A DNA stretch of 64,000 bases from Cyanidioschyzon merolae (taxonomy: Eukaryota). How positions within the stretch are numbered: position 1 is the first letter of the stretch; each line of letters opens with the position of its first letter. Position numbers and translations under genes: made by a program. Below are positions 20,607 to 62,569 of the stretch, piece after piece. The DNA lies in NCBI GenBank assembly GCA_000091205.1, contig AP006500.2; one strand, 5' to 3'. The notes beneath the pieces were generated by a model. That model saw nothing but the letters and a program-made list of their open reading frames with translations. It was not told the origin of the DNA and searched no databases.

Positions 20607-21108
20607 TTAATACGTCGGTATCTCCGTGCTCTCAAGGCCCATATTTTGCTGTCCAAAGACGTTGATGGCAGCCTTGAAGTCCCCATTTAGCAGCGCCCAG
20701 CTATTGACGACGCATTTTATGCTTAGGAGGACGTCGCGATTCACGAATCGCTTCCCATTTTCATCTACTTTGTATTCAGCCCAGGTCTGCTCTTCGTAGG
20801 GGTGAAACTTGACCGCGATCACGTGTTCCATTGTGTCCGCTAAAATTACTCCTCCTGCGGATGCCACGCTGTGGTTCACGAAAGCTTGGTTCATAGCGCA
20901 TTATATGCCTTTGATGAGCATAGATGGCTCCGTTCGCCATTTTGATCAGCTTCTGGACCCGGTGCCACACCTTACGATAACAGGCTTTCTCTGGGCGATC
21001 CCCTCGGGGAGTATTCTTTCCACTGTACACGCAAGAGCTCCAAGCTCCATTCCATAGCTTCCTATCTGGCTCCTTGCGCGCTCTTCGTTTTCTGCCTACT
21101 CTTCCCAT
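20607..21108 (-). pseudogene. Degenerate TnpB/Fanzor-like (RuvC-III region) remnant, copy 1
   Basis: Overlapping minus-strand ORFs in different frames. Contains 'GKRFVNRDVLL...GDFKAAINVFG', and the nucleotide segment 'cgattcacgaatcgcttcccattttcatc' is homologous to the copies at 23.2k, 27.8k and 53.85k. Confidence 0.4.
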
Positions 21109-23326: not shown

Positions 23327-23470
23327 CTCTACCCTCTGGAGTGTACATCAAAGCTCATCCCTTAGAGTTTTTATTTTTTCTAACTGAATGCACTTCTTTA
23401 TGCCACCAGGAGAGGATCTTTTCCGAAAGAGAAGCATTTGCGGAAGACAGATGAAATGTGCCAGGATATG

Positions 23471-25754: not shown

Positions 25755-27146
25755 CTGTACCCTTGCCAGTCTAAAACGGAGCACTGAACTGCTCGCCATG
25801 CTCCTGCATTTCGGTATTTTCCGAACATTTTTTCGATGTGCAGCCTCGACAATCGAAGTGAAGCAATAACGGCGTACGGTTTCATAAGTGGTTTTACGAT
25901 TCTCGCGCGTATTTTGGGAGTGACTCGGTTCACGCCCTGCCGCTGCAATTCGTCACATTTCATCAATCAAAGTGCACCGCGCGGCCCTGGAGCATGCGTT
26001 CGCACGGTAACCGACATCAGTTTGCAAGCCGAACGCCCCAGCGTCCGCTCCTGCCCTCTCCTCCCCTTGCGCGTGTCATGCTCAAACCACGCATTCTCCA
26101 AGTCTTCGATTCTTCCGTTTCGGGGCACCTCGTGGGGGCAGCTATTCGCGCCGATGGATTGACGAGCAAAATACCACACGTAGTCTATTGGCGACTTGTG
26201 CACAAGCTCATGCCGAAAGCTCCCTGCACTCGGCACGTCAAATGAACGATTCCGTTCGATAGACAAACCCTCCTTTCTCTGTAGCTATCAAGGAGACGGC
26301 ATTCGACATCAGCATGGTACCATACACAAAGAATCCACCAGGAAGCTCCAGTTTCTTCCGTTTGCACGGAAGACGGGCGTGAACTCGGGCTTTAGTCATT
26401 GCACGGACCGTTTCCAGTGGGGAACGCATCTCTGTTTCGCGCCACTGGAATATAGACAGATCGAAACCTCTCGACTTGTTCTCCAGCCTGGATTCTCCTT
26501 CCGGTGCGTGTCTCGTCGTGGGCAACATCGTGCCCCGCGAATCCTCTGTCGAATAGCGCAGGATGCGCTTCCGAGTGCGCAGCGGACAGAGTTCTCGCTG
26601 GAAGCATGGCCCAGCGGAAGCCCCAGATCATGGGGTACGGTTCAGTGCGCCGAAGCGGAGGTGGGCGTCCACGCGCGCCTTCTGCACCGGTCAAGGGCAT
26701 GTGCCGAGCGCTGAAGCAAGCCTTCAGGTGCCACAGGGCGGCGCGCGAGCTCGGATGTCTGATGGACATACAGAAATACCTGAACACAGCCAAGTGCCAC
26801 AGCGGCGAAGTGCCTACTGAGCCGTACGGAAAGAGGACGAGAAAAGCGCGCAAAGCGTATATCGCAAATTTCGTACTTGCATGGAATGTGTCGCCAACAA
26901 CCGGTAACAGCTGCATAGGGACATGAACGCTGCCACCAACAGCCTTCGACAATGTGCACTGGAGCTGGTGGGAAAGGGGGGTATGATGCATTTAAAGCCG
27001 GAAGTAAGAGGGAGGACACCGAACCGGTCACCGAAAAAGCCGTGAAAGGCTGGTATTGATGGCAGTGGCAGGAGAGGCCCAACCTGTTTGTGTGCGTGTC
27101 CCCGGATAACACAGTGGACCCGTTCCATTTTAGCCTGACGTAGATG
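25755..27146 (+). repeat. Left arm of a large inverted repeat (~1.39 kb); member of the dispersed repeat superfamily
   Basis: The reverse complement of 29024-30405 matches almost base for base. The ORFs of the two arms mirror each other (25836..26162+ = 29998..30324-; 25967..26266- = 29894..30193+). Boundaries were fixed by direct comparison of the junction sequences. Small indels between arms include 'ccccactggaaacgg' versus 'ccccacggaaacgg'. Confidence 0.85.
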
Positions 27147-27767
27147 TAGCCGGTGAATGATCGCAGGCGATGCACGAAGCACGCGGCGGTAGCGGTAGGA
27201 GTTCTGTGCTGTTCCATATATACGGCGTTGTCATACGTTTGCAGTCCGTTTGTTACGCGGCAAAGAAGGATTAATATTCAACTCAGAGCAGGTCATGGAA
27301 GTCGATTCAATTTTGCCATTCAATGTCAAATTTTGTCATTCATGGACGCTTGCCTCATGTTCTTGGGTGGCTCGACTCGCACTCTCGTCGCTAACGCATC
27401 GGTACGGAGCAGTTCTGAGCTCATCGCGGCACAGCGTTCCGTCGATTTCAGGTAAAGCGCAACTGGGCATACGCTGCAAGTTGAATAGGATATTGGTTTA
27501 CTTGGACCAAATGAAGGGGTCGTTGAGCCCAATAAGTTTATCCAGATGCCCTTCCACATAAAGGAATCGATAAACTTCGGAACTGTGTTTCAGTTATCAG
27601 AAGGACCAAAAAGCGTTCTACAACCATGCAGTCCAAATACCCGCTTACTCACAGACGCCTCCCAGCTTTCTTTTGGCAGGCAACCGAAATTGGAATCCGT
27701 TTTTATCCCAGCGAACTTCGATACCGAGAGACCGCCCCACAAAGTTGGCTCGTGCCGGCTCCTCGAG

Positions 27768-28016: not shown

Positions 28017-29023
28017 CCCCGACTTCCATATCCATATCTCTCACTAAGACCTTTTTAAAATAAACACACTTCGAACGTATATGCTATAAACCACAAAAGA
28101 TAAGCATTTGATTCCACTCATCTGGGCGTGGAACACAATTGAAGAAAAAGACTACAAGATACAGGCAGCCGTTGCTTTCAGGAATACGGCACGCGTTGGA
28201 GTTTGGATCATGAACCTGGACGCTGGCGGCGGTCGTCGCAGCCGCCGCTGCCGTCTGCGGCCTCAGCGTCAAAGAACGGCTGCATTAAATTATTTTACTC
28301 GAGGGCATCGCCTTCTTCTATACTGCTGAAGCATACAGACGTTATTTCTTTGTTAAGCTTGCGCTTAACGCTCGACACCCAAGCTCGCGATTGTTGTCCA
28401 ATAGCATGGAATCTCTCTCTACTGCACCAAGGGATGAGCGCTTTCCCCACACGAACCAGACGAGGAACTGCTGGGTTCGCTACGTTGAGTGGAAACTGTG
28501 CGAAGAGAAACACGGCGAGGAAGAGTCCGAGTGCAAAAAGTTTGGTCGTTGGGCACGCGCACTTTGCCCAGTAGACTGGATCGAGCGGTGGGATGAACAG
28601 CGAGCAAACGGGACGTTTCCTGGGCCCTCCGGCGAGTCCTCGTGAGCATATGGCGCTGCATATTTCAGTGACTACGGGCTCCGCGGAAGAATTGGAACTT
28701 TCCTAGTACTGCTTTTTCTGACAGATTGAGGCGAAAGGTTCTGGGCGACTTCCTCGACGGAGAAATGTTTTCCACTCGAAAGAATATCATGCATATGGTT
28801 CTACAACCACAAAACAACAGCAGGTCTGTGTCGTATGCGACTTGCGAGTTTTATGGCCTACCTCCTGGTCTCTTGTCATGAACAACGGCGCGCCATGTGA
28901 AAGCATGGAAGCCCATCATCACTTGAGAGAATTTGATTGAAATTCTTTGGACCAGAGGAGAAATATAATCACACTCGGGAAGTGCTTATGGCGATGTTTC
29001 TCTTGTTCGCTAGACATCTACGT

Positions 29024-30405
29024 CAGGCTAAAATGGAACGGGTCCACTGTGTTATCCGGGGACACGCACACAAACAGGTTGGGCCTCTCCTGCCACTGCC
29101 ATCAATACCAGCCTTTCACGGCTTTTTCGGTGACCGGTTCGGTGTCCTCCCTCTTACTTCCGGCTTTAAATGCATCATACCCCCCTTTCCCACCAGCTCC
29201 AGTGCACATTGTCGAAGGCTGTTGGTGGCAGCGTTCATGTCCCTATGCAGCTGTTACCGGTTGTTGGCGACACATTCCATGCAAGTACGAAATTTGCGAT
29301 ATACGCTTTGCGCGCTTTTCTCGTCCTCTTTCCGTACGGCTCAGTAGGCACTTCGCCGCTGTGGCACTTGGCTGTGTTCAGGTATTTCTGTATGTCCATC
29401 AGACATCCGAGCTCGCGCGCCGCCCTGTGGCACCTGAAGGCTTGCTTCAGCGCTCGGCACATGCCCTTGACCGGTGCAGAAGGCGCGCGTGGACGCCCAC
29501 CTCCGCTTCGGCGCACTGAACCGTACCCCATGATCTGGGGCTTCCGCTGGGCCATGCTTCCAGCGAGAACTCTGTCCGCTGCGCACTCGGAAGCGCATCC
29601 TGCGCTATTCGACAGAGGATTCGCGGGGCACGATGTTGCCCACGACGAGACACGCACCGGAAGGAGAATCCAGGCTGGAGAACAAGTCGAGAGGTTTCGA
29701 TCTGTCTATATTCCAGTGGCGCGAAACAGAGATGCGTTCCCCACGGAAACGGTCCGTGCAATGACTAAAGCCCGAGTTCACGCCCGTCTTCCGTGCAAAC
29801 GGAAGAAACTGGAGCTTCCTGGTGGATTCTTTGTGTATGGTACCATGCTGATGTCGAATGCCGTCTCCTTGATAGCTACAGAGAAAGGAGGGTTTGTCTA
29901 TCGAACGGAATCGTTCATTTGACGTGCCGAGTGCAGGGAGCTTTCGGCATGAGCTTGTGCACAAGTCGCCAATAGACTACGTGTGGTATTTTGCTCGTCA
30001 ATCCATCGGCGCGAATAGCTGCCCCCACGAGGTGCCCCGAAACGGAAGAATCGAAGACTTGGAGAATGCGTGGTTTGAGCATGACACGCGCAAGGGGAGG
30101 AGAGGGCAGGAGCGGACGCTGGGGCGTTCGGCTTGCAAACTGATGTCGGTTACCGTGCGAACGCATGCTCCAGGGCCGCGCGGTGCACTTTGATTGATGA
30201 AATGTGACGAATTGCAGCGGCAGGGCGTGAACCGAGTCACTCCCAAAATACGCGCGAGAATCGTAAAACCACTTATGAAACCGTACGCCGTTATTGCTTC
30301 ACTTCGATTGTCGAGGCTGCACATCGAAAAAATGTTCGGAAAATACCGAAATGCAGGAGCATGGCGAGCAGTTCAGTGCTCCGTTTTAGACTGGCAAGGG
30401 TACAG
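29024..30405 (-). repeat. Right arm of the large inverted repeat
   Basis: See the left arm. Terminal junctions are 'acatctacgtcaggctaaaatggaac' (inner) and 'gactggcaagggtacag' (outer). Confidence 0.85.
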
Positions 30406-36080: not shown

Positions 36081-37460
36081 CTTTCGATCGTTTCCCGAAT
36101 GTTCGCTAGAAACACAGCTGCAATATTCAAAGTGCAGCAATAACGGCGAATGGATTCATGGGTAGTTCTATGCCCCTCGGTTGTACTATCCGTAGGGATC
36201 CCGTCGACTCCCTGCCGCTGGCATTCGATACGTCACCGGGATCAAGATGGTTCGTGACGCCCTCATACGCGGGTTCGTAACATAGCCGATATCATCATCT
36301 CATTCAGTCGCACGCGCCTGCACTCTTCTGTTTTCCTCAAGTATAGCATGCTTGAATCATGCATTCTTCAAGTTTTCGATATTTCTCCTTAAAGGCAACT
36401 CGAGGGCGCAGCAATGCGTACAGCTGGGTGGACAGCGAAAAGAATCGCAACGACTTCACTTGAAGACTTTGTCACATGCTCATATCGAAGGCTGACTACA
36501 ATTGTCAGGTCAGCTAATCGCATCCGTCCGAGAAGGAAATCCGCCCGTCCTTGAGACAAGCGGCAACGTGGCGTTCACAGCCGGCGAGATAACGCTCACG
36601 GCATACGTCCCCAGAGGCTTCGCTCGCTTCCGTACACACCGAAGAAAATCGGAGACTCAGACCTGAGTTATCGCAGCGACCGCGCCAGATAGAGAGTCTG
36701 GCACCGCCTTGCACGGAGGAAGCGTAGACGGATCGAAGTTTTCTAGAATTGCGCTCCAGCCTGCATTTTTGCCTCGCGGTACATGGTTCACCACGAAAAG
36801 CTTCCCGTTCCACGAATCCTCCATCGAATGCGACACTGTGCACTGGCTTGCGCTGGCTTGCACTGGCTTGCGCTGGCATTGCCCCGCACTGCCTCGAGCC
36901 GACGCCCTCTGTGTGGTACGGCAACGCCGTTCTGCCTCCGTGCAGCGACCGCACTGGCGCTATAGGCGTCATTGCTGTCGCTTTCGGCAGGCACTAGGCA
37001 CACACGATAGGACGTATGAAACGACTAGAATATCCGGGAAGTAGTGTGGGTCATGGAACTTGGAGGCAGGGCGTTCGATGGCTACTTCACCGCACACAAA
37101 CAAAAAGAAAACAAAAAGTGCACAATCGGAGAACGCTGGCCTAAGTAAGCATTTTGTCAGTGAGAAAAATCCGACACTGTGTTCGCTGAGGGCATTGCGC
37201 TGATGCAACCTGCCAGCGAAGCGCACGGCAGCGAGCCCGCAAACTGAGAAGAGCATCGTGGTAAGCCTTCGATACTCGTCAATTGCATGGAACGAGCGAA
37301 AACGCGAGCTGTACGACGCCTCAAAACGGCCCTCCGAGGAAGAGGAGCAGGAGCAGGAGAGGCTTTGGTGGATATACGGGAACACCTGACCACAGCCAAA
37401 AGTCATCGATGCGAGGACGCACAGAGGCTGTATACAATGAAGATGAAAATGGCAAGCGAA
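36081..37460 (+). repeat. Direct repeat copy 1 (1.38 kb), a divergent member of the dispersed repeat superfamily
   Basis: Essentially identical to 46739-48119 at an offset of 10,658 bp. The embedded ORFs are identical (36514..36972- = 47172..47630-; 36709..37044+ = 47367..47702+). Only two single-residue differences were seen in the translated ORFs: H versus Q, and M versus R. Confidence 0.9.
36844..36883. repeat. 10-bp minisatellite (CTGGCTTGCR)x3-4 inside DR copy 1
   Basis: 'ctggcttgcgctggcttgcactggcttgcgctggcattgc' read directly. The mirrored copy is at 47502-47541. Confidence 0.8.
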
Positions 37461-38360
37461 GCGCAGGCTGCAACAACCGTCCGCGCAACAAGTGCGTCGA
37501 CAACTACCGAACGCAGTAAAATCGGGACTTTACCACCACCGCCATCAATATCCTGCGACTGCCGAAAACCTAGCCAGAGAAGATAGGAACAGGAAGCAGT
37601 CACAGAAAAAGCCCGCACACGCTAGTCTCGATGCCAGCTCGAAGACATCCAGCCGTTCAGATTCGCACTCGAGCGCGCAGCGAGCACCGCAGCGTATACC
37701 TAGCGGACACGTATGTCGGACCCGATCCAACTGGAGGCCCCTGTGCGCTGCTTCGTTGCTGGCGGGCAACGCGCAAGCACGCGCGCGGCGCCGTTGACCG
37801 CGAGATCGACGGCGGGTATCTCACGCGTTGCGCGAGCGGCTGTATGCGATGGCGCGCGCATCTGCAAACGCCGCCTCTGAAAATATCTGAGGAGCGGGGC
37901 GTACACGCGGCGCCGAGCGTCGCGTCTCGAGAACGTTTCGCGGGCGATCCTGCGGCGAAGGCGCGCTTCGTCTCGACATCGCTAGATGCTGTGCGCTGCA
38001 TTATCGAATGCAGCTGCGCGTCAGCGGTGATATCTTGTAGCTGCAGTGCTGTGACGTGAGCGACCAGTTGCTCGATATTTGCGTGAGACTTCGAATCAGC
38101 GCTATAATATCATAGTTGTGGAGGTTGACGGCTTCTTTGACTGGTTCGAGGGGTGAGCGACTACATCTACTAGAAGCAGTGAGCAAAGTCCGGACGGCGG
38201 CGGCGGCGGCTTCTAGAACCTCGGTACGCTGAGGGTTTGGCACGCGCAGGCGCAACCGAGCTCGAGAACGCAACTCCTGGGGCGAATTTGTGCCAAACTT
38301 TTTAGGTTGTTTTCTTGAGTTTAGTTCGTCTGTGGGCGGCTAGAGTGTCGGCGCGGTACG

Positions 38361-40370
38361 TTGCCGCGTGCCTGCTGGCGTGACGTGGTCATGAAACGGC
38401 GTCCAGATAATATTGCGCTCGCCGGTCGTACAGACGCCGAGCCTGGCAATCAGATGGACGCAACGAAGCAGAGACTGACTAATCGCCCTTCCGGTACGAA
38501 TACCGACCGGTTCGTAGGCCCGGAGACCCAGCAGCATTACTCCGCTTTGACGACATACCCGCAGGTGACGCCAGCGGCTGCATGCTGGGGCAGGGTGGCT
38601 GCCCCGGGTTACGCGGGCGCTGGTTCCATGCAGGCACAATCCAACAGTTACCCCTGGACATCGAGCTATCGTCCGCTTATGCTCCATGGGTATCACTTTC
38701 CAATAGGGCCTCTGCCGCATTCGGGTCCACGTGGTGCTGGTGCGACTTCGGTGACGGCTTTTGGAGTGCCTGCTAGCGCGAGGGCACCCCAAGCGCCGGC
38801 GTCAGGCTTTCATGGATCACTGCAGCACGCTGTGGATCGCTGGGATCCAGTTCCGGTGCAGCCACCGACTAGAGAGGCGTTGTACCAGCAAGAACTATTC
38901 TATCAGTCTGCTCAGTTGTTCGGAATGACGCCGAGACACATAACGGGGACTGAACACACCCGCGGTTGGCCCGTTGCAGTGAATGCGGAGTTTTACAAAG
39001 CAGCGCATCCTGGGCAAATACCGGTGCCTCATAATATCCCATCGTCAGCTGAAGCGTGTTGCGCAAGACCTCATGACGGAGCGTTGAATTGCTTACACGC
39101 TTTGGCCGCAATCTCCTCACAGGCGGCTACCAGCCTTTGTGGCGTGGGAATGGCCCGCCCAAATACCGGCGCGCAGCAGTCCGAGAGAGCGACTGCATCA
39201 TGCCCAGCTGAAAGAGCGCAGAACCGAATGGAGAACCCGCAATGTTGCAACGTTCCAGCGGACTGTTCAATGCCTATGCATACCTCTTCAAACGAAGGCA
39301 TCCCAGCATGCCTGGAGCACCGTCCTCGCCCGGAGTTCTACCCCGGTAAAACGGACGGCACGCGCCCCGGTCATGTGCAGGTTTCAGAGGGCAACATGAG
39401 TATGGTGAGCTTGGATGCCTCGTCGCATACGAATCAATCGATGTCGCTGCCTACTGCGCTTAGCAGCCGCTTTAGGACTGGATACCAGGGACCGTGGATG
39501 CAAACGGTCCCAGAAACCAATGCACACTGGGAGCGAATGAGTCGAGACAGTAGTGGAACGAGCGCCCGCGCGATGCCAAGCGACGCTGCAAGTCAGACCG
39601 GATTGGATCGTTCTTCGAGCGGCGATGATGACGCAGCTTCGCTTGCGGGTGGCGAGCATCTGCAGCGTATGTCCGGAGACAATCCCTGGACTGCCGCAAG
39701 CGCATCACCGACAGCAGGCGATGCTGCCGAGAGATCGATCTTACACAGAAACGTAGGTCTCGCTGGTGGCGGTGCAGCGTCGTCAGACCCCACGGCGGAC
39801 TTTTACAGGGATGGTGCGAGTTCACAGGCTACAGGGCATGTGGCGGGACTGCCAAGCAACGCTGCAGGCCCCGTCGAAGCTCCAGATCGGCGGTTTCAGG
39901 TGCCTCACACGTCGTTCCCCGCGGGTGCGATAAGATGGGTCCAGACGCTCCCTGCGTTGCAACTGGATCAGAGCTCCAATGGTGTTCTTCTAGGCGGGAG
40001 ATTCGTAGCGTCGGAAAACACCGACCATGGCATGGATCGAATACCGCTGACCATCGAGCACCCGCGCTGTGCAATAACGGACCACGCCGATCGAGTCGCT
40101 GCTGTCGGTGCAGCACCTGACACCGCAGCAAAGTCACCGACCTGGAGTGCCACTGAACGAGAGCGCTATCGCTTGGAGCGTGTGCAGCGCTTCCTCGAGA
40201 AGCGCCGCCGTCGCGTAGCGCATCCCGGCTTGATCCGCTACGACGTACGCAAGCGCCTCGCAGATGCACGACCCCGGGTACGCGGCCGCTTCGCGCGACC
40301 TGAAACCGTTGCTGCTGCTACTGCTGTTGCTGCTGCGCCTGCCACGACGAAGGCGCCGACTCCCCCCTGA
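38361..40370 (+). CDS. CCT-motif protein (CONSTANS/CO-like/TOC1-type C-terminal domain), otherwise low-complexity
   Basis: 669 aa. The C-terminal 'RERYRLERVQRFLEKRRRRVAHPGLIRYDVRKRLADARPRVRGRFARPE' matches the CCT consensus 'REA.V.RY+EKR+.R.F.K.IRY..RK..A..RPR.KGRFAK'. Confidence 0.7.
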   Translation: MPRACWRDVVMKRRPDNIALAGRTDAEPGNQMDATKQRLTNRPSGTNTDRFVGPETQQHYSALTTYPQVTPAAACWGRVAAPGYAGAGSMQAQSNSYPWTSSYRPLMLHGYHFPIGPLPHSGPRGAGATSVTAFGVPASARAPQAPASGFHGSLQHAVDRWDPVPVQPPTREALYQQELFYQSAQLFGMTPRHITGTEHTRGWPVAVNAEFYKAAHPGQIPVPHNIPSSAEACCARPHDGALNCLHALAAISSQAATSLCGVGMARPNTGAQQSERATASCPAERAQNRMENPQCCNVPADCSMPMHTSSNEGIPACLEHRPRPEFYPGKTDGTRPGHVQVSEGNMSMVSLDASSHTNQSMSLPTALSSRFRTGYQGPWMQTVPETNAHWERMSRDSSGTSARAMPSDAASQTGLDRSSSGDDDAASLAGGEHLQRMSGDNPWTAASASPTAGDAAERSILHRNVGLAGGGAASSDPTADFYRDGASSQATGHVAGLPSNAAGPVEAPDRRFQVPHTSFPAGAIRWVQTLPALQLDQSSNGVLLGGRFVASENTDHGMDRIPLTIEHPRCAITDHADRVAAVGAAPDTAAKSPTWSATERERYRLERVQRFLEKRRRRVAHPGLIRYDVRKRLADARPRVRGRFARPETVAAATAVAAAPATTKAPTPP

Positions 40371-40807
40371 GCATGAATAAGCATGCTTTACGCTGTTGAC
40401 ACTATACATTGGGTGTGTGTGTGTTTGTGTGTGAAATCATGTTGGCGTTCTGCGTATATCGAGAGGCACGAAGAACTCATGATACACGCTCGCTGCGACT
40501 CCGAGCATGATCCTTACGGACGTTGCTGTCATTGCAGTAGATGCTGTTGGTCACACATTGTTACCATCATCGCGTACGAAACAAGAGCAAAGCGCACGCT
40601 GTCTCAGTGGGTTACACGCACCACGTACAGCAATGGACACGTGTCCAGAATACCGCTGTGTACACGCATAGACGCATGTATCGACACAGGCATGCGTGCT
40701 CGTGATCCGTGCCCAACACCGATCGGGGCATGCAAGGCTGGCGTTACGAAACGCAGCATTGAACGGGAGCGCGACCTGGCCCAGTCACGTACCGTGCATG
40801 AGGCGAC

Positions 40808-43800
40808 TCAGCGCGTGTGCGTTTGTCGACGTGCCCGCCCCGCAGCACGTGGGTTCCGCTCCGCTGTCGCTGCTGTTGCTGTTGCGGATGCTGGTGAGGC
40901 TTGAGGGAATCCTCCTGCGGTGACGCCTTCGGAGCGTTTCTTCATTGACGCTTCTAATTCCAAGACCTCGGAGCTAAAGCAACCAGTTGCGCGACCTCGA
41001 CGTTTTGAAGGCGATGCGATCGAGGCAGTGCGGAGATTCCATGTGCTGCTCGCACTCGATGTCGTTGTTGCGCTGCTGCTGGAACTGTTGCTTGCGGAGC
41101 TGCAATTGCTTGATGGCTCGAGTTGCAGACGTTGAGCCGGGGCTCGTTTTCCAGTGTTCTGGAGGTTTTGCACGCAAGGGTGCGCGCCTCCGGGCGCACC
41201 TTCGCGGTTGGCGAAGGTTGGTGCCATGGCAGCTGCTCCAGTGCTCTCCAGACGCGCAAGAATGTGCTTTCCATAGGAGAAGCGTTTGATGACGTTCAGA
41301 TTCGCACGAAGAAGCTCCGCCGCTTGCTGACGTTGTTCGTCGCCGGCTACATCCAGGACTCGCTGCACGACATAATTTCCGAATTGGTCCTGGACAAGAT
41401 CTATCAGAGGCACGCTGTTGCGGGGTAACGCAGTTGCGCCAGAACTACCACCACCACCGCTGCCACTGCCAGCAACATCAGATCGGCCCAGGAGAATATC
41501 GATGAGGGCTTTGCGATCCGCTGGGGAGCCATGTTGCAGACATCGCTCGACAACGTTACTCGCGTACTTGTGTTGACTCATGCTAATACACTGATCCCTG
41601 ACCATGCGGAGAATATGCGCACGCTCTTCCTCCTTTCCATGCTCGACAACGTGCTGGATGACATAGTTACCGTATTGGTCCCGAATGAGGGTTCGGCACG
41701 CCTGCATAATCTCGCGCATGATCGGGACTTTTTGCTCCTCTGGTGAATATTCTAAAATGCGCTGTATAACCCGGCATCCATAGGAATGTTCAGCAAGCGA
41801 GACGGCCTGGCCCCGAACCGCGTCCACGATAAACTGAACGTGTTGTCCTGGAACTCGTTCGATGCATTTCTGGATCACATGATTGCCATTCTGATCACGG
41901 ATACACTTCAACACGTGTCCGTCGAGTTCGATCACGAGTTCCGCCTGCGTACTAGCAGGCAAGACTTCGAGTGCCTTCTGTACAGCCCTGCAACCATACA
42001 TGTGGAGTGAGAGCGCTAGGATCCGGTTTTTCAATTTCATCGCGATTGCCTGTAGGTCACGTGCTGTGCCGTGCTCCAAGAGTTTTTGCACGACGTAGTT
42101 GCCAAAGACATCCGTCACCAGGCGATTCATTTCTGCGAGCACTTCCTGCAGCACCCACCCAACCTGATCAGGAGTTGCAGTCTCCAACTTGGTCTGAATG
42201 AAGCGCGAGCCATGCTGATCCGTGCTGAACTCCACGATTTGACCACGAATATCCTCCAGTTTCCAGGAAGTGAACGCCTCGTCCGACGCAAGCAAGGCTG
42301 TCCGGAAGCGCTCCAGGAGAGCCGAGCGCCCAACGGACGCTATGACTCCGCTATTTGGCGGATTAGCGGCATCTGGACTCGAGAGGGTGCCACTAGTACC
42401 CAAATCCAGTGACGGAAAGTGTAGCGGTGACCTCGGGGGGGCCCCTGTCGGTGGAACCGTTGCCGGTGGAGCAGCGGCAGTCTGCAGAAAGCCGCCGACA
42501 CGCACTTGCCCGCTGTACGAGTCTGTGAGTATCGGTGCGACGCTCACGAACGGGGCGCGCAGTTGAGCCACACCACTAGAATGCCCCATCTGGGTTGTTG
42601 GTTCTCGTCGAGGAGCTCTTGCTGCTGCTGCTGCTGCCGGTATCGGATTTGCACCAGCGGGGCCAACACTCCCTGGCACGGCGGGCCTGCCACCATTTTC
42701 TTCGGATACAAAAGAAGAAGAAGACGCCGACGACGGCCTCGGTGATGTCGTTTGCGCTCCATAGGCTGCGGGTTCTGCTGAAAGACAAGATTCCGGAATC
42801 GAAGCATCAGCCAAGTTCCCATGTTTTGCGCTCCGCATTCGCATGGCATCTTCTGTGGCATGTGCACAAACGAAGCGGCATCCGCTCGGAATGACCGGGG
42901 GAAACGATACGCAATGGTCCGGAACCAAGGAAAACATTGACGACTCGTTAGCATCCTCGCTGCCAGAGGCAACCAAAGTGCTCTCTTTCCGAACAGATGC
43001 AGCACGACCCTGTGGACAAGCGATTCCCGACGGCAGCTGTGCAGCAGGGTGCCAGGAATACACGGGTGTTGCTCGTCGATCCGCAAGCTCCACCTCAGTG
43101 CACAAGCCCGCTTGTTCGCTGCCGTTCAAAACGATCTGATCTGGATGAATCCAGATGCTTTCTTCGAGCGGTTGCGTCGCACCTGGTGATGGCGATATGA
43201 GCGGAAGCGCCTGCGAGAGATGCGCGCCGGCCGCGTTCGCAACTTGCAGAGGCCTAGGGCTCGTAGCTGAATAGCCTGGACACAGACGTCGACCGTTGTG
43301 GCATTCGTAGTGCTCGAAAGTGCCTTCGACGAGCGAACTCTGCCTGCTCGGTGAAAGTCTATGGGTCCTATTGGCGTTGGGATCGATCTGAGGCCGCCCA
43401 GTCTCAGATACGGAAGTTGTTCCACTGCCAATCATTTGGGAGTCCACCCGACACTGGTTGTCAGGCTCTGAAACACCGTCAGCGGGGCTCTCCAAGCAAC
43501 AGCGGGCTGTTCGCTGCTCCTGGACACAGGTTTCCGGGCTCGGTTGTGATTCCGTGACTGGGATATTCAACGGAGGGCGGCTTGCCCATTGCAGTGTGGA
43601 TTCGAGACGTGCAGCCGCATCTCGACGACCACACGAGGATTCCTCACTGTTCTGGCTCTTTCCATTGGTGACATGACCCACGTAACCAGGGGAGCTCGCT
43701 GCGCGTTCTCGACGGTTCGGGACCCGCTGTTCATGTTCTTCGTTACCGTTGGTATCCAAACCGTCCCCCTTTTTCCCAGTGCATATTTGACGGTCATCGG

Positions 43801-45328
43801 CGGAGCGTTCTTTCGGTGCTCGGGGCTGATGATTGAGCACAGCGGGATACCCGCTGTTCGGCGCCTGCACCGTGGCAGGACTACTCCAGGATCTGGTGCA
43901 CACAGTACCGCTCTGAGCGCTCTGGTATGCCGCTGATGCATTGTACAGCGGTGATGCGCCACAGCCTCCTGCCCAGCGCATCAGGCTCGGATCGGAAGCC
44001 ACGATTGATGGGTTATTAGCCATTGGTAACGACGACGAACTCGAGGAGACCGATGACGCGGAAACCGGTGCTCGAGGCGAACGAGCATAGCCATTCAACG
44101 TGTTGATGCCTGACAATGCCGTCGTTGCACGCTGCTGATCCCAGGCGTCTTCGCATGACTTCCACGAAGCGGCCCCGGACACAGGTCCCGACCACGCAGA
44201 ACGGGAGCTTCCAAACGCGCGACCGCTCACGACAGATCCCCCTTCTAGCCCAGACACGGAACTGTACTGACTCGCACTTCGAGCTCGCACCGGTGACGAC
44301 ACTACCGAGGAGGACTCGAAGGCTGGGCTTGGCGTGCGCGCCACATCCGACCGTGCTATCTCTGAAATCGTGCGGTGCGGAATCGGTGCCCAGAGCCTTG
44401 AGTAGGCGCCCTCCGCAGCCGACGGTGTGGTCCTTCCAGTACACGTCAGTGGACCAGCCAGGGGCTGCTGTTCACTCGGCGAGGAACAACACGCCGCAGG
44501 CTGCCATACCCGCGGGCAGGGCGCCACTCCCCAGCCTTGAGGAGTTGCAGTGCGTAAATCGCTTTGGAAAGCGGCTGATCCGCTCTCAGAGCCTGCGGAA
44601 AGAGCTGACTGCTGTGCACGCCACCAGTCCGCCTGCTCTGGACGGCTTTGAAACGTCCACTGGGTCGGTGCACGCCTCAATGGCGGGGCGCTCTGAATAG
44701 ATAAATTTGAAAACCTCTCCAGTGTTGTCTGGTCCTTTTCTGTCCAGTCCCTTTGTAGGACACGGGGTCCACGTAATGGATCCGTCTGCGACCCGTAGCC
44801 ACGGAGCATCTCGTTGCGCCGGGTGTCGGCTCCCAGCTGATGGGAGCCAGAAGCAACTTTCCAACTCGCAAGGCGATCCGAAGACATCTGATTCGGCGTG
44901 GACAGCTCTCCAGGATCAGAATACTGCGCGTCGTTGGAGCCGGAAACACGTCCCGGTGACGGTACTGAACAAAAACCCGGACATCCCCAAATCGTCGAAG
45001 CATACATAGAGTTCTTGCCCGCATCTTCCCCGGATCCACCGATGCGCTCGGATGCTGCACTCCAAATATCTTCGCCTGTTGCCACTCCCAAAAGCGATGC
45101 ACCGCGTCCAAACTCCACCTTCTTCCGGAACTGACCCGGAGGCGGCGCGCTGGCCACTCGGGGCGGCTGTTCGTTTTCCAACGCCGCTTCAAAACCGACC
45201 GGAAGTGTCATCTGAGGCGACACAGCACTTCCGCTAACCGTACCAACGCGCACACGAGCCGCGTCGTCTTGCGCGGGCGCCGCCCTGGCTCGAGCATCGA
45301 CGCCGGTCCAATTGCGTTGCGTGCCCAT
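40808..45328 (-). CDS. Pumilio/PUF-family RNA-binding protein (eight PUF repeats in the C-terminal half, Ser/Ala-rich N-terminal half)
   Basis: 1506 aa. Repeats include 'DVFGNYVVQKLLEHG', 'DQNGNHVIQKCIE', 'DQYGNYVIQHVVEHG', 'SQHKYASNVVERCLQHG' and 'DQFGNYVVQRVLD'. Confidence 0.85.
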   Translation of the reverse strand: MGTQRNWTGVDARARAAPAQDDAARVRVGTVSGSAVSPQMTLPVGFEAALENEQPPRVASAPPPGQFRKKVEFGRGASLLGVATGEDIWSAASERIGGSGEDAGKNSMYASTIWGCPGFCSVPSPGRVSGSNDAQYSDPGELSTPNQMSSDRLASWKVASGSHQLGADTRRNEMLRGYGSQTDPLRGPRVLQRDWTEKDQTTLERFSNLSIQSAPPLRRAPTQWTFQSRPEQADWWRAQQSALSAGSESGSAAFQSDLRTATPQGWGVAPCPRVWQPAACCSSPSEQQPLAGPLTCTGRTTPSAAEGAYSRLWAPIPHRTISEIARSDVARTPSPAFESSSVVSSPVRARSASQYSSVSGLEGGSVVSGRAFGSSRSAWSGPVSGAASWKSCEDAWDQQRATTALSGINTLNGYARSPRAPVSASSVSSSSSSLPMANNPSIVASDPSLMRWAGGCGASPLYNASAAYQSAQSGTVCTRSWSSPATVQAPNSGYPAVLNHQPRAPKERSADDRQICTGKKGDGLDTNGNEEHEQRVPNRRERAASSPGYVGHVTNGKSQNSEESSCGRRDAAARLESTLQWASRPPLNIPVTESQPSPETCVQEQRTARCCLESPADGVSEPDNQCRVDSQMIGSGTTSVSETGRPQIDPNANRTHRLSPSRQSSLVEGTFEHYECHNGRRLCPGYSATSPRPLQVANAAGAHLSQALPLISPSPGATQPLEESIWIHPDQIVLNGSEQAGLCTEVELADRRATPVYSWHPAAQLPSGIACPQGRAASVRKESTLVASGSEDANESSMFSLVPDHCVSFPPVIPSGCRFVCAHATEDAMRMRSAKHGNLADASIPESCLSAEPAAYGAQTTSPRPSSASSSSFVSEENGGRPAVPGSVGPAGANPIPAAAAAARAPRREPTTQMGHSSGVAQLRAPFVSVAPILTDSYSGQVRVGGFLQTAAAPPATVPPTGAPPRSPLHFPSLDLGTSGTLSSPDAANPPNSGVIASVGRSALLERFRTALLASDEAFTSWKLEDIRGQIVEFSTDQHGSRFIQTKLETATPDQVGWVLQEVLAEMNRLVTDVFGNYVVQKLLEHGTARDLQAIAMKLKNRILALSLHMYGCRAVQKALEVLPASTQAELVIELDGHVLKCIRDQNGNHVIQKCIERVPGQHVQFIVDAVRGQAVSLAEHSYGCRVIQRILEYSPEEQKVPIMREIMQACRTLIRDQYGNYVIQHVVEHGKEEERAHILRMVRDQCISMSQHKYASNVVERCLQHGSPADRKALIDILLGRSDVAGSGSGGGGSSGATALPRNSVPLIDLVQDQFGNYVVQRVLDVAGDEQRQQAAELLRANLNVIKRFSYGKHILARLESTGAAAMAPTFANREGAPGGAHPCVQNLQNTGKRAPAQRLQLEPSSNCSSASNSSSSSATTTSSASSTWNLRTASIASPSKRRGRATGCFSSEVLELEASMKKRSEGVTAGGFPQASPASATATAATAERNPRAAGRARRQTHTR

Positions 45329-46738
45329 CCTGCTCCCTCGCCAGCGTCGTGTGTCGACGGCAAGGAGTACTCAAGAACCTCGAAACGCACCCGAACCGCA
45401 ACACAAAACCGGCAATCACGACACGCTTGCACTAGCTATCGTAAGCACTGGAAGCTCCTGAGCTGTTTCAGTCTCCCCGTTTTGCAAGCCCCAATGAACT
45501 ACAAACCAAAGCGCACCAGCAGTTTATCTCCAAGCCACAAACTGACAAAACTGCTGCCCCGAACGAGCCACAGACACTATACCAATAACAACCCGCCGTG
45601 TGGACTTTCAGAAAACAAGCCCGGCAACAAAAACTATTGCCGCGGCTTCAACCAGTTGCAAGCCAATGCGTCGATAGATAATTAGCAACGCTTGTTGCGT
45701 CGTCCGCCGTCGCTGCAGCCGCGTTGCCCGCTGGATCGCGCAGATCGCGCCCATCCCCGTTGCTGTTGCGCTTTTCTTTAAGGCTGCGACGGCGCGCGTG
45801 CGCTCGTGCACCGCGTGGAGGCTCCCCGGGCGCTGCTGTTGCTGCCGCGCGCTTTAAACCAAACAGACACGCCCTCGACGACGGGGACGGCGATGGATGT
45901 CACATGTGACATCCGGCGAGACCGCATGAGTGGCGCTGCGCTCCCGCGTCCGCGACGTGCCGTGGTGCGAGCGCGGGGCGCGATCGGAATGGGAAATTGG
46001 ATAATGCAGACAATGCGGACAGGCTGCGCGGGCGTCGATTTCTTGCTGATCCCGTGGCGACGCGTGCGGGTTGTGTGGAAACGGCAGCGGGCAGTCATGC
46101 CGTGCACCGCATGCCGTCGCTCGGTGTTGGCCATGGCGGGGCGGTGGCGCACGCGCTCCTCATTGATAGGGGATTCGCGGTGGTAGAAGACTCGGACTGG
46201 GTGTTATGCTGGAGTGCCCAGTTTGAAGTCACCTGCCTGAAAGTGCGTCTTCGCTCGAAAACTGCGAATTCCGAAGGTGTTTCTGGTGCCTAGATGTCCA
46301 ATCAGCAGTGGTTACGATGGAGCTCAGTTTCTGAGTGACCTGGTGCGCTGACGGTAGCGTGACGTCGCTGCATTTGGGCCTCGGCCATGGTCTCTTCGAA
46401 GCGCAAACCTCCTTTATGACTGCGTAAGCCAGTCTGTTTGAAAAGATGTGTGGAATCCGTTTACCTCCACGGTCCACAGGATGAAAGACGCTGATATACC
46501 CACTTGATGTTTGACATTGCGGTACAAGACAGACAATCGCAGTTGCCTTGCTCCGAGGCTGCATAGTCGGTGTGCACGGTGTCGTCCGTGGGAATTTATC
46601 ATGATGCACTGATTGCGACAAATATCGCTGCGGCTTATTGGTACACGCGGATGAACAAAATGCAGCTACTTGGCCCCAAGCTCTGCTGAACCCATTTCGG
46701 ATAAAAATGGAACACTGAAATGCTCGTAGTGTTATTTT

Positions 46739-48119
46739 CTTTCGATCGTTTCCCGAATGTTCGCTAGAAACACAGCTGCAATATTCAAAGTGCAGCAATA
46801 ACGGCGAATGGATTCATGGGTAGTTCTATGCCCCTCGGTTGTACTATCCGTGGGGATCCCGTCGACTCCCTGCCGCTGGCATTCGATACGTCACCGGGAT
46901 CAAGATGGTTCGTGACGCCCTCATACGCGGGTTCGTAACATAGCCGATATCATCATCTCATTCAGTCGCACGCGCCTGCACTCTTCTGTTTTCCTCAAGT
47001 ATAGCATGCTTGAATCATGCATTCTTCAAGTTTTCGATATTTCTCCTTAAAGGCAACTCGAGGGCGCAGCAATGCGTACAGCTGGGTGGACAGCGAAAAG
47101 AATCGCAACGACTTCACTTGAAGACTTTGTCACATGCTCATATCGAAGGCTGACTACAATTGTCAGGTCAGCTAATCGCATCCGTCCGAGAAGGAAATCC
47201 GCCCGTCCTTGAGACAAGCGGCAACGTGGCGTTCACAGCCGGCGAGATAACGCTCACGGCATACGTCCCCAGAGGCTTCGCTCGCTTCCGTACACACCGA
47301 AGAAAATCGGAGACTCAGACCTGAGTTATCGCAGCGACCGCGCCAGATAGAGAGTCTGGCACCGCCTTGCACGGAGGAAGCGTAGACGGATCGAAGTTTT
47401 CTAGAATTGCGCTCCAGCCTGCATTTTTGCCTCGCGGTACATGGTTCACCACGAAAAGCTTCCCGTTCCACGAATCCTCCATCGAATGCGACACTGTGCA
47501 CTGGCTTGCGCTGGCTTGCACTGGCTTGCGCTGGCATTGCCCCGCACTGCCTCGAGCCGACGCCCTCTGTGTGGTACGGCAACGCCGTTCTGCCTCCGTG
47601 CAGCGACCGCACTGGCGCTATAGGCGTCATTGCTGTCGCTTTCGGCAGGCACTAGGCACACACGATAGGACGTATGAAACGACTAGAATATCCGGGAAGT
47701 AGTGTGGGTCATGGAACTTGGAGGCAGGGCGTTCGATGGCTACTTCACCGCACACAAACAAAAAGAAAACAAAAAGTGCACAATCGGAGAACGCTGGCCT
47801 AAGTAAGCATTTTGTCAGTGAGAAAAATCCGACACTGTGTTCGCTGAGGGCATTGCGCTGATGCAACCTGCCAGCGAAGCGCACGGCAGCGAGCCCGCAA
47901 ACTGAGAAGAGCATCGTGGTAAGCCTTCGATACTCGTCAATTGCCTGGAACGAGCGAAAACGCGAGCTGTACGACGCCTCAAAACGGCCCTCCGAGGAAG
48001 AGGAGCAGGAGCAGGAGAGGCTTTGGTGGATATACGGGAACACCTGACCACAGCCAAAAGTCATCGATGCGAGGACGCACAGAGGCTGTATACAATGAAG
48101 ATGAAAATGGCAAGCGAAA
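46739..48119 (+). repeat. Direct repeat copy 2 (1.38 kb)
   Basis: See copy 1. Junctions: starts 'ctttcgatcgtttcccgaatgttcgc', ends 'gatgaaaatggcaagcgaa'. Confidence 0.9.
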
Positions 48120-48814
48120 TATGCATCGAAACATCTGCATGCGCATGAAATGTGTTGAAAACCACTGGAAGCAGCAAAACAGGGGCTTTAAATCTGCAGT
48201 GAACATCTTCCGATCGCTAATGATGGAGCTGGAAGGAACGGAGACACCGTCGTATCTCAAGTCGGAGCTCGAAGAGAAGGAAGAAAATCAGCCGCGAAAA
48301 AGCCCTTAATGCCTGTTGCTGACGGCAATTGGAGGATACCTAAAATTCAGTATTCACGTTCGAGGTAGAATAGTGTATCCGTTTCATTTTATTCTGAGAG
48401 AGGTCTAGCTCATGGCAGCTATAGAAAATGACTCACTGACTGGCTGCCACTTGCGATGAAGAGCTTGCATAGCAGGTTCTTTTCTAGATCGCAACACCTA
48501 CTGCAGGACCAGAGCTTGGGACAGTATCGTGAATAAGTGTTGTGCTTTGAGAAAGCGGCTGCACGGGCTCTGTACCAGAACGACAAGCGCGGTGAGCCCG
48601 CTACGCTGAAGATGCATTCGCGTTCGAAGCAGCGGCACACACAAGTGCGGTGCTGTCGCCCGCTAGCGCTGGGAGCGCTCCGCAAGCACACTCTTGAGGG
48701 CAACTTTCCCATCACGAGTCGAGTACTTTCACGCTTGCACAGTTCTAGAGCCGCGAGAGGCAGCACGCACAACTTCGTGGCCGCTGAAGCAGACGGCGCT
48801 CCTCGAGTTCGAAG

Positions 48815-51499: not shown

Positions 51500-52099
51500 T
51501 GATGCACGTGCCGTTCTGATCAGCGTTTCAGTACAGTGGGCGTTGTATCCAGGGGTGTAGGTAGCGCTCAGCCGCGTTGCCAAATGTGGTGGCTTCTGTA
51601 GCGGCTTCGATGGATTGTCCTTGCGAGTACGAGGTGCTGTCCGCATGAACGCGCACGCTCTTCTGGAGTTGCTGTTTGTCGAAGACCTGTTCGCCCCTTC
51701 TTTGGCATATGTGTTCGTGCAGTATCGATTTTCTCGACGTTGCGAAGCAGGGCGGATGTGCTGCTCTCATGCTGCTCGTTGCGGTAAACGTATAGATCAT
51801 CATGCAAGCTCAGGGGTGTTTCTTCGTTTTGAGCGTGCATCTACAGGTTGCAGGTCAGGAGGCACTCTCAAAACAGGTGTGCCTGGTGAAAAGCGCGCTA
51901 CGATGCCTGGAAGAGAGTAGTGGAGGCTTCCGGTCTCTTTCGGATCTTCGTGGCAGACTCAGCGCCCGGACGGTCGCTGAGTCTGCCAAATTGTTTTCTT
52001 AGAGTATGGTTGTTCAGTTTGTGGAATCTGGACACATCGCCGCTACATCCATTTTACATTAAAGAGGGACACGTTCTCGAACGCTGACGGACACGCTCA

Positions 52100-53110
52100 A
52101 ATTCTGGCCTTTTTTGATTGCCATCATCATAAGCATTTGCAGGATGTTTCTGCGGATGCTTCATTTTCCTCTTCCTTATCTCCGGATTGTAAAACGCAGA
52201 CCTCTACTGTCGCTTTTTTTCTAGTGCAAGGTGTAAAAGGACGTTGTTGGTAGCGCCAAATGCCCGATTTCGTAGTTTTCCGCTGTTGTCGAAGCTTGTT
52301 ACGCACAGAAGGAAGCTGCGATCTACGCTTCGATTGCCGTTTTCATCTTCCTGTGTACAACTTGTCGGCCTGCTTGGCAGCGATGACACTTTGCTATGGT
52401 CAGATGTTCCGGTATGTCTCGTGCAGTAAGTCCTGCTTCTAGGGCCATCCTATGATTCTTGAACGCTCGCCCTGCAGCTCGGTAGAAGCTTTGGACGAAA
52501 AAGAGGGCTTTGCTCGATGCCTTCCTATTTTGTCGTGATCGCTATCGTCTCATACGATCACGAGCTTCCTCTGGAAGATTCCCTGGACGAGGACTCTGTC
52601 CGCTGCGCATGGGAGCGCATGCTTTTTCACTAGAGATGGGATTTGCGGAACGCGATGTTGTCTATGATGAAAAGTACCTGAAAGAAAATCTACGCTGCAG
52701 AACAAGTCCAGAAATTTCGATCCATCTACGTGCTCTTCGTCGAATGCTGCATCACGTTTTGCATTGCAAGCGATCGTACCGATGGCTGAATTCCAAGTCC
52801 AGGACCCTTTTCCACACAAGCAGAAGAGAAGGAAGCCTCCGAGAGCGTATTCAGTGATGGGATTATGGCGCTGTCGATTGCTGTTTCAAGGGCGGCCATG
52901 ACGAGAGTGGAATTTGTCCTTCGAACAGAATCGATTGTTAAACGTTAGAAATTAAGTGGGCTTTGAGCCTAAGATTGTGAATAGGTTGTCAAAGGGCGAC
53001 GTCGAGTATTTTTTTGCCGTCAATGCAATGGCGTGAGTTGGTGCGTCTACTAGTTGCCTCGAAACAGGGATATCGCAAACTTGGGGAATCTACGATTCGA
53101 GAATGCTGCA
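52100..53110 (-). repeat. Partial copy of the dispersed repeat superfamily (core2-complement at ~52690, core1-complement at ~53090)
   Basis: 'ctgcagaacaagtccagaaatttcgatccatctacg' matches 'gactggagaacaagtccagtattttcgatccggatacg' at 63150. The 52128-52400 region aligns with 62596-62830 ('cataagcatttgcaggatgtttctg' versus 'cataagcgtttgcagaatgtttctg'; 'ggaagctgcgatctacgcttcgattgccgttttcatcttcc' versus 'ggaatttgcgatctacgcttcgcttgccactttcatctcc'). Confidence 0.6.
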
Positions 53111-53587
53111 CACGATGAACGGAGAATCGGGGCTTGGACGCATGCACTGGATAATTATATAGATTGCATGGCGAAGCCTTGTCCAATGTCATTGCAAATT
53201 ATGCGGGTTACGGTAAAGTAACCAAATCTAGCGGCGAAGCATACATTGCGCGACTCCGAAAAGACGAGCAAGCACTCCAAAACTAAGAATGAATTCGTAA
53301 GCCCATAATCTTGCATTTTGAATGTCAAGTATATTCATCGGGAAAAACGAAAGGAAACCACAGAGCGCGCTATTCAGTATTCCATTTTCATCTGATGTCG
53401 GTGAAGATATCAGAGCTAGGTCCCGGCGATCAACAACGTTTTGCAAAACCCGAACATTTTTGTTCATCATGTTCGATTCTGTGGCATGACAAACGCCGAA
53501 GGCGTCATACCCATTTGCGTCTGCTGGAACAAGCGAGTCTCTGGGAAGGCGCTGAAGTCTCGTACCCTGATCGTTGGCAGCGATCCC

Positions 53588-62482: not shown

Positions 62483-62569
62483 GCGGGCAAACCTAGTACT
62501 CCTTCACCCATTTTCGAGAAAAAATGGATGCATCCATTTGGTTACCTCGGGTGTGAAAACAGAAAAGTT

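Follow-up and report, generated by a model that had tools for sequence, protein, structure and literature searches.

The near-identity of two 1.38-kb direct repeats on chromosome 18 of Cyanidioschyzon merolae 10D is probably the product of ectopic gene conversion between two long-resident, diverged members of an intergenic repeat family. The repeats, designated copies A and B, lie in a window of 64,000 nucleotides, the whole stretch of DNA that was analysed, and the coordinates of all features refer to this window (Table 1). The original prediction had offered gene conversion and very recent duplication as origins of the pair. Conversion is the better explanation, since the near-identical tract lies, at each site, within a diverged family unit. 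Very recent duplication is not supported as the origin of the pair, as each site was already occupied by an old family copy with diverged flanks.

Table 1. Features of the chromosome 18 window (positions in the window, strand, and basis or remark).
Feature	Position	Strand	Basis or remark
Copy A, near-identical tract	36081..37460	+	1380 bp; alignment to B
Copy B, near-identical tract	46739..48118	+	1380 bp; alignment to A
Nested insert in A	36841..37171	-	331 bp; specific to A and B
Unit A right end, outside tract	37461..37564	+	family homologue; only ~57% identical to B right flank
Unit B left end, outside tract	46668..46738	+	profile match
Unit B right end, outside tract	48119..48270	+	profile match
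c14, family member	14052..15437	-	~59% identical to A/B
c20, partial family member	20498..21057	-	3' third only
IRL, family member	25755..27147	+	99.93% identical, inverted, to IRR
IRR, family member	29014..30405	-	second homogenised pair with IRL
c52, family member	52066..53416	-	sequence comparison with family
c63, family member	62546..63915	-	sequence comparison with family
Hypothetical protein CYME_CMR408C (BAM82593), 145-aa ORF	36969..37406	-	exact look-up, 10D annotation
CMR409C (BAM82594), CCT-motif protein gene	38391..40370	+	PF06203, E=3e-12
Pumilio/PUF RNA-binding protein gene (BAM82595)	40808..45328	-	eight repeats, E=5e-77

Two near-identical direct repeats bracket two host genes

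Self-BLAST and base-by-base alignment confirmed that A and B are direct repeats in the same orientation, with the start-to-start spacing of 10,658 bp given in the original prediction; the end coordinate given there, 48119, was one base too far. Heavy divergence between the copies, a possibility raised earlier, was not seen on base-by-base comparison. Only two of 1380 positions differ (36194 A versus 46852 G; 37287 A versus 47945 C) and there are no gaps, giving 99.86% identity. When A and B were compared at a fixed offset, identity was 1.00 throughout the tract and ~0.25, the random level, beyond about 100 bp outside it on either side. Next to the tract, identity stepped from 99.86% inside to ~57% in the 110 bp to the right and ~44% in the 70 bp to the left, and the right boundary was abrupt, with a drop from 100% to ~50% over a few bases.

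The interior of the pair holds two host genes, as had been noted, encoding a CCT-motif protein and a PUF protein. A domain search of the interior ORFs found no gag, pol or transposase domain, again in agreement with the earlier description. The CCT–Pumilio–NHL gene order is kept in Cyanidiococcus yangmingshanensis (contig L016) and in GCA_041825655.1 (contig L017), relatives in which the NHL protein is 55–57% identical. The interior gene order is thus ancestral, common to two distant cyanidiophytes. Neither family copies nor bracketing repeats were detected in the two relatives, whose intergenic DNA is so diverged that the former presence of family copies there cannot be judged. From the end of the tract, the distance to the downstream start codon is exactly 931 bp in both copies; this spacing involves no homology and was set aside as a coincidence.

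The tract is nested in two diverged family units

The window contains eight members of an intergenic repeat family with a unit length of 1.35–1.41 kb, and at least three more are present on chromosome 20. Pairwise identity among members is ~57–62%, and the only near-identical pairs are A/B and IRL/IRR. The near-identity of A and B therefore contrasts with a much older family, as had been proposed; the 25–30% divergence from other members that was given with this claim is too low, and we measured ~40% (58–60% identity). A census with a 30-nt degenerate pattern returned Cyanidioschyzon contigs only, with two extra loci on chromosome 20. Under this search with one sequence pattern, family copies were located on chromosomes 18 and 20 only, and since the pattern was tuned on four of the copies in the window it cannot bound the size of the family. 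At locus X on chromosome 20, an inverted family pair is only ~65% identical, indicating that proximity alone does not guarantee homogenisation. GC content is 0.53 and 0.56 in the homogenised pairs versus 0.47–0.50 in the singletons, a contrast that follows the local GC context and compares two pairs with three singletons.

A protein-coding family was considered and rejected. Six-frame tblastn between copies matched all frames about equally, ORF-versus-ORF blastp yielded short matches on both strands, and the mismatches carried no period-3 signal, with only a weak local phase bias in a sliding-window test. There were no Pfam matches in the repeat and no reading frame was conserved across family members; neither Rfam, at the gathering threshold, nor tRNA scanning gave a hit anywhere in the window. 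The B equivalent of the CMR408C ORF (47627–48064) is unannotated in 10D, and CMR408C is probably a spurious gene call within a repeat. The family is old, non-coding, dispersed and intergenic, with a unit of ~1.4 kb.

The position of the tract within the family unit was established with a profile that excluded A and B and drew on IRL, c14, c63 and c52 only. The tract spans profile positions 118 (start) to 1156 (end), and family homology continues outside it. The A right flank (37471–37564) matches profile positions 1168–1258 (E=4e-7), colinear with the tract, and the B right flank (48125–48270) matches positions 1164–1309 (E=2e-11), with homology to the IR arms extending to ~48409. On the left, the B flank (46668–46733) matches positions 46–111 (E=7e-5). 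The A left flank gave no comparable match to this profile of other members; on this side the tract may therefore stop just where the shared sequence runs out, and the left junction lies approximately where A's detectable family sequence stops. Outside the tract, the flanks of the two sites differ as much as any pair of family members does. Other members show no step at the same boundary, with identity of ~60% inside and ~61% just to its right. The right junction coincides exactly with the point at which the best-conserved block of the family alignment, GAAGATGAAAATGGCAAGCGAA, ends.

A nested insert is shared by A and B only

Within the tract, A carries a 331-bp insert whose counterpart in B lies at 47499–47829. 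The insert is bracketed by a perfect 10-bp direct repeat, CGACACTGTG (36831–36840 and 37172–37181), which is its target duplication, and it was absent from every family member besides A and B. The insert with its target duplication is a derived character of the presumed conversion partners and supports conversion.

A 278-bp part of the insert, reversed, aligns at 77% identity with chromosome 20 sequence that lies upstream of the TCP1-alpha gene (contig L026, 9954–10242). The insert also contains a minisatellite of 10 bp repeated 4.3 times (36839–36882). A 146-aa protein, P0111, was considered as a third copy of the repeat and rejected, the common part being the nested 278-bp module alone.

Both copies are present in wild populations

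The arrangement is present in wild populations. Independent environmental metagenome assemblies hold both copies in the same order, and all four repeat/flank junctions were reproduced in at least eight independent assemblies. Contigs L022 and L023 span copy B plus unique flanks on either side, and one sample yielded a stand-alone 1380-bp contig (L024) that is the repeat exactly. Because both copies recur in independent assemblies, the pair is not an assembly artefact. Duplication during assembly or chance similarity can be dismissed with near certainty, given the finished status of the 10D genome sequence (PMC1955436) and the fact that 1378 of 1380 matching bases cannot arise randomly.

No third near-identical copy of the tract was found in the metagenome and assembly look-ups, and exact matches to the tract's 152-aa ORF were confined to the contexts of A and B and to stand-alone contigs in which the copies had collapsed. 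All long contigs showed the full arrangement. None joined the A left flank to the B right flank, and no deletion, duplication or solo-repeat allele was seen in the retrieved assembled contigs, which are contigs and not reads.

Near the left edge, flank-phased variants of copy A were 17A/97C/111T/114A in ERZ27247228 and Ga0123519, 114A only in 10D, and none of the four in ERZ27249350, while copy B was always G/T/C/G at sites 17, 97, 111 and 114. Sites 376, 715, 844 and 966 vary between strains and match between A and B within each strain, a pattern that short-read assemblers may produce by collapsing the copies; L024 and a 1266-bp contig (L025) are examples. The A–B difference in 10D (0.145%) was not significantly different from the between-strain divergence in the repeat (0.14–0.36%), as strains are only 0.1–0.7% apart, and conversion after strain divergence is thus not demonstrated by this comparison.

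Probable gene conversion and alternative explanations

In the sequence of events that we infer, A and B would have started as old members ~60% identical to each other, one of which would earlier have acquired the 331-bp insert. Intrachromosomal non-reciprocal recombination, by ectopic gene conversion or gap repair, would have copied the central 1380 bp, insert included, onto the partner, and the unit ends beyond the tract would have retained their old, diverged sequence. As a by-product, two host genes are now enclosed by direct repeats that are 1.38 kb long and 99.9% identical. Homologous recombination and gene conversion have been documented experimentally in C. merolae (PMC3764038). There are weak hints that conversion ran from B to A. 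More than one event may have taken place, and the flank-phased edge variants of copy A hint at recurrence. Differences between strains in these variants are suggestive of conversion that is still ongoing, a reading confounded by short-read repeat collapse. Against gene conversion, homologous recombination at only ~60% identity should be very rare, so that the initiation of the first event lacks an explanation.

This difficulty would not arise if A and B had been kept identical by frequent conversion ever since the family spread, with only the sequence outside a fixed domain diverging. Such long-term concerted evolution would need no initiation of recombination between 60%-identical DNA. It is in line with the second homogenised neighbour pair, IRL/IRR, with the raised GC of the homogenised pairs, with left-end edge variants that differ by strain and with interior polymorphisms common to both copies in each strain. 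We consider it unlikely, however. The cross-strain evidence is mostly confounded by assembly collapse, the flanks have diverged from each other as much as unrelated members have, and the inverted pair on chromosome 20 has not been homogenised. Furthermore, no identity gradient is seen at the right boundary, and the lack of such a transitional zone fits a single event better than concerted evolution over a long period.

Very unlikely, in our estimate, is a functional role for the family, not as inert debris but as a length-conserved non-coding element (regulatory, chromatin-related or a non-coding transcript) that occupies the majority of the long intergenic spacers in this part of chromosome 18 and whose neighbouring copies are actively homogenised. 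Conversion between A and B would in that case also have carried to a second spacer the 331-bp module, which is promoter-like and related to the TCP1-alpha upstream region.

Recent insertion of a 1.38-kb non-autonomous mobile element at both sites would explain the sharp ends and the near-identity, and the dispersal of the family over at least two chromosomes is compatible with mobility; the nested 331-bp insert shows that insertions occur at this locus. The tract ends, however, differ from the unit ends, and family homology runs on colinearly outside them. No inverted match longer than 12 nt was found between the unit ends, so terminal inverted repeats are lacking, and inspection of the flanks found no target-site duplication around A, B or the whole pair. 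The sequence before 36081 is ...TCCCGC and that after 48118 is ATATGC..., with no 4–6 bp duplication bracketing the pair. With no transposase or reverse transcriptase and no third near-identical copy in the look-ups, we judge this explanation very unlikely.

A composite 12-kb unit resembling an LTR retrotransposon that captured the CCT and Pumilio genes matches the locus in direct orientation, repeat size and spacing of ~10 kb and can otherwise be discarded: the tract termini are CTTTCG...GCGAA and not TG...CA, no target duplication flanks the pair, no primer-binding site or polypurine tract is evident beside the repeats, gag and pol are missing, the interior gene order is the ancestral one, older family units enclose the repeats, and no LTR retrotransposons were found in the genome (PMC1955436). 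Every LTR feature tested fails, upholding the earlier view that the pair is not an LTR element. Read as probable gene conversion, A/B is a clean but ordinary case, and not a gene-carrying mobile element.

Comparison with known systems

Ectopic (interlocus) gene conversion is described for yeast Ty and delta elements, human low-copy repeats and the palindrome arms of the Y chromosome. A and B resemble these cases in having an abruptly ended, near-identical tract within older, diverged paralogues, a shared derived insert, and partners that are close together on one chromosome. They differ in that the partners are otherwise ~60% identical, far under the usual requirement for homologous recombination, that the tract, 1.38 kb with a 341-bp heterology included, takes up roughly four-fifths of the unit, and that the host genome is very compact and mostly haploid. 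The locus leaves the current understanding of recombination unchanged. It would stand as a case of ectopic conversion, and as a possible recombination substrate formed by repeats, in a genome that is frequently described as both the simplest and the least repetitive among free-living eukaryotes. With two pairs homogenised among the eight members in the window, which otherwise are ~40% diverged, the family raises the question of how recombination starts between such DNA.

As direct repeats of more than 1 kb and over 99.8% identity that bracket genes, A and B also resemble the low-copy repeats that mediate non-allelic homologous recombination; they are far smaller than typical human ones, and the consequence here is an expectation. 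Because the repeats offer 1.38 kb at 99.9% identity in a recombination-proficient alga (PMC3764038), it is reasonable to expect that the pair predisposes the CCT and Pumilio genes to deletion or duplication. Rates of mitotic conversion and pop-out could be read from the locus, used as a natural reporter in this genetically tractable alga. The resemblance to LTR retrotransposons is limited to same-orientation repeats of ~1.4 kb about 10 kb apart; A and B differ from them in terminal TG/CA, target duplication, gag/pol and the pattern of insertion relative to relatives.

A novel interspersed repetitive element has been described in C. merolae by Nozaki et al. (2007), with 253 copies of mean length 3.2 kb that are spread over all chromosomes and make up ~5% of the genome; it is transcribed and has a truncated ORF weakly similar to WSV486 of WSSV (PMC1955436). 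A protein search with the 250-aa ORF of IRR, the longest in the window family, returned its own orthologues only and no WSV486-like match. Like that element, the window family is interspersed and intergenic, lacks intact coding capacity, occurs on more than one chromosome and has one copy with an annotated hypothetical ORF (CMR408C). It differs in its unit, ~1.4 kb versus 3.2 kb, and in its density, with eight copies in 64 kb versus an expected ~1 per 65 kb.

A near-identical tract on either side of the CCT-motif and Pumilio genes

Exact protein look-ups placed the window on chromosome 18 of C. merolae 10D (1,253,087 bp; PMC1955436). Self-BLAST and a base-by-base alignment confirmed the original prediction that near-identical direct repeats bracket the CCT-domain and Pumilio (PUF) genes. 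The two copies of the tract, A and B, are 1380 bp each, share the same orientation at a spacing of 10,658 bp, and differ by two mismatches (36194 and 37287) and no gaps, or 99.86% identity; copy B was found to end at 48118 rather than at the predicted 48119. Identity at a fixed A-B offset is 1.00 across the tract and reaches the random level within ~100 bp on either side.

Features of the repeat locus (profile positions refer to the family profile; accessions are from exact protein look-ups)
Feature	Window position	Strand	Profile positions	E	Remarks
c14	14052-15437	-			family copy
c20	20498-21057	-			partial family copy
IRL	25755-27147	+			family copy, inverted-pair arm
IRR	29014-30405	-			family copy, inverted-pair arm
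A, tract	36081-37460	+	118-1156		family copy
A, right flank	37471-37564		1168-1258	4e-7	
B, left flank	46668-46733		46-111	7e-5	
B, tract	46739-48118	+			family copy
B, right flank	48125-48270		1164-1309	2e-11	
c52	52066-53416	-			family copy
c63	62546-63915	-			family copy
Insert in A	36841-37171				331 bp
Insert in B	47499-47829				331 bp
Piece of insert	10795-10853				62 bp
cdc27					BAM82592
CYME_CMR408C	36969-37406	-			BAM82593; hypothetical, 145 aa; wholly within A
CCT-motif protein CMR409C					BAM82594
Pumilio					BAM82595
NHL-repeat protein					BAM82596

The tract is nested in older, diverged family units

A and B belong to a repeat family with eight copies within the 64-kb window, as found by sensitive self-comparison and a profile search. 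The profile was built from IRL, c14, c63 and c52 only, so that A and B had no influence on it. It matched family sequence past the tract on the right side of both A and B, and on the left side of B too; A and B are therefore each an old family unit reaching past the tract. The profile did not detect family sequence in the left flank of A, so the boundary there may be no more than the point where shared sequence stops. Outside the tract the flanks of A and B are 44-57% identical, no closer than those of unrelated members, and the very recent duplication first proposed does not fit such old units.

The step from 99.9% identity to family-level divergence falls inside continuous family homology. 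A fresh duplication or transposition would not yield a sharp step there. Judged from the sequence, such a step would result if one paralogue were copied non-reciprocally onto another, and gene conversion, also raised in the original prediction, is supported by this nesting. In the proposed mechanism the tract of one paralogue would have been copied onto the other. In the family alignment, the best-conserved block to be seen ends exactly at the right junction, the place where diverged copies would be most likely to have a stretch of identity in common. In C. merolae, experiments have established both homologous recombination and gene conversion (PMC3764038). We found no prior description of the A/B pair in the searchable literature; it is a real, well-delimited case of an old repeat family undergoing a known process, rather than a novel type of element.

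A and B alone carry a nested 331-bp insert, bounded by a perfect 10-bp direct duplication (CGACACTGTG), and because of it their units are longer (~1.7 kb). Over 278 bp the insert is 77% identical to positions 9954-10242 of a chromosome 20 contig (L026), 136-424 bp upstream of the TCP1-alpha start codon. In the simplest history, one copy would have gained the insert and conversion would then have carried it to the other.

Beyond the repeat and the nested module, CMR408C lacks homologues, and its near-identical twin in copy B carries no annotation; the gene call is probably spurious.

The pair is neither an LTR element nor an assembly artefact

The prediction that this is not an LTR element stood. 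Against an LTR or composite element, the tract ends are not TG...CA, the pair has no flanking target duplication, and gag and pol are absent; no transposase was recognisable in the interior either. The order CCT-Pumilio-NHL gene is kept in Cyanidiococcus yangmingshanensis and a second distant cyanidiophyte, and the interior is therefore ancestral host DNA. Blastn found neither a family copy nor a long bracketing repeat in those two cyanidiophytes, and outside the contexts of A and B the exact ORF of the tract was not found. LTR retrotransposons were not detected in the genome of C. merolae (PMC1955436). A short inverted similarity in the second of these, GCA_041825655.1 (L017 728-1003 vs 9012-9176; 64-72% over 90-150 bp, E ~1e-9) joins the spacer upstream of the CCT gene with the Pumilio-NHL spacer and may be an unrelated small repeat in the same two spacers.

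Nor is the A/B pair an assembly artefact. The 10D sequence is a finished assembly without gaps (PMC1955436), and the locus was recovered at 99-99.9% identity in metagenome contigs from several independent samples, three long contigs carrying both copies in unchanged arrangement. Some contigs break exactly one k-mer inside the repeat: L009 ends 141 bp in and L044 begins 141 bp before the end of A. One sample yielded a stand-alone 1380-bp contig (L024) of the same extent as the tract. Two contigs, L022 and L023, run through copy B into unique DNA at either end. The former (ENA ERZ27247235 k141_66878, 16.6 kb) is a MEGAHIT contig, and its passage through B would not be expected were copy A identical in that sample; copy A there may be different, or the cause may be graph pruning.

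One conversion event or several

Divergence of the environmental strains from 10D is 0.1-0.7% over the locus as a whole and 0.14-0.36% within the repeat, so little that the 0.145% A-B difference in 10D is not datable relative to strain splits. Four interior sites vary among strains yet agree between both copies of each strain, a pattern to be read with the caveat that in short-read assembly both copies probably share a single collapsed path. Edge sites within one k-mer of the unique left flank are more reliable. At sites 17/97/111/114 of the tract, copy A reads A/C/T/A in ERZ27247228 and Ga0123519, G/T/C/A in 10D and G/T/C/G in ERZ27249350, and copy B always reads G/T/C/G. Copy-specific variants thus gather at the tract edge, in numbers that differ by strain. 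This suggests repeated events that would have homogenised the edge less often than the interior, perhaps running from B to A; lineage-specific mutation could also produce the edge pattern. Against long-running homogenisation of A and B, the right boundary has no transitional zone. The two homogenised pairs have higher GC, which hints weakly at biased conversion.

At sites 715 and 966 (window 36795 and 37046) all four allele combinations were seen among strains, and this implies either recurrent mutation or recombination, be it between strains or between copies, within the limits that assembly collapse sets on this reading.

In a recombination-proficient host, a 1.38-kb, 99.9%-identical direct repeat should permit the 10.66-kb interval with CMR409C and Pumilio to pop out or be duplicated. 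The junction of the A left flank with the B right flank occurred in no retrieved contig, assembled contigs being a poor assay for rare alleles.

The repeat family and its surroundings

All eight window copies are intergenic and surrounded by ordinary housekeeping genes. Pairwise identity is 57-62% throughout, except for A/B and for IRL/IRR (99.93%, inverted); divergence from other members is thus ~40%, above the 25-30% predicted. There is no indication that the family is coding. In translation, copies matched one another in all six frames about equally, ORF-vs-ORF comparison gave just short matches on both strands, and family mismatches lacked three-base periodicity, with only weak local bias in a sliding-window test. 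Pfam, Rfam and tRNA searches returned no matches, homologues of the longest ORF were limited to its own orthologues, and no terminal inverted repeats were found.

A 30-nt pattern taken from the block conserved best was run against the entire metagenome collection and matched Cyanidioschyzon contigs only. It also brought up at least three more family copies, at two loci that flanking proteins both assign to chromosome 20 (beside the RSK-1 kinase BAM83268 and beside CMT231C). By the kinase (contigs L031/L038/L043), an inverted family pair ~2.7 kb apart is just ~65% identical; closeness alone therefore does not bring homogenisation. The family may be, or be part of, the interspersed, transcribed element of Nozaki et al. 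2007 (253 copies, mean 3.2 kb, truncated WSV486-like ORF; PMC1955436), although its unit is 1.35-1.41 kb and its local density ~eight-fold higher.

The 1393-bp IRL and IRR arms lie 1866 bp apart and differ by no mismatches and one indel, and their near-identity extends over essentially the full family unit. Contigs from environmental samples break within the right arm. The 5 kb at 20264-25290, which includes c20, holds no convincing gene. A separate short repeat (~71-73% identity) is common to 23048-23242, 27703-27870 and 53716-53911. ORFs at 53673-54347 and 54425-56527 have no Pfam match. Between 10D and two environmental strains, 53673-55763 diverges by 7.6% against 0.1-0.7% for the rest of the locus, which would make it a local hypervariable or replaced segment; the alignment with both strains stops at 55763.
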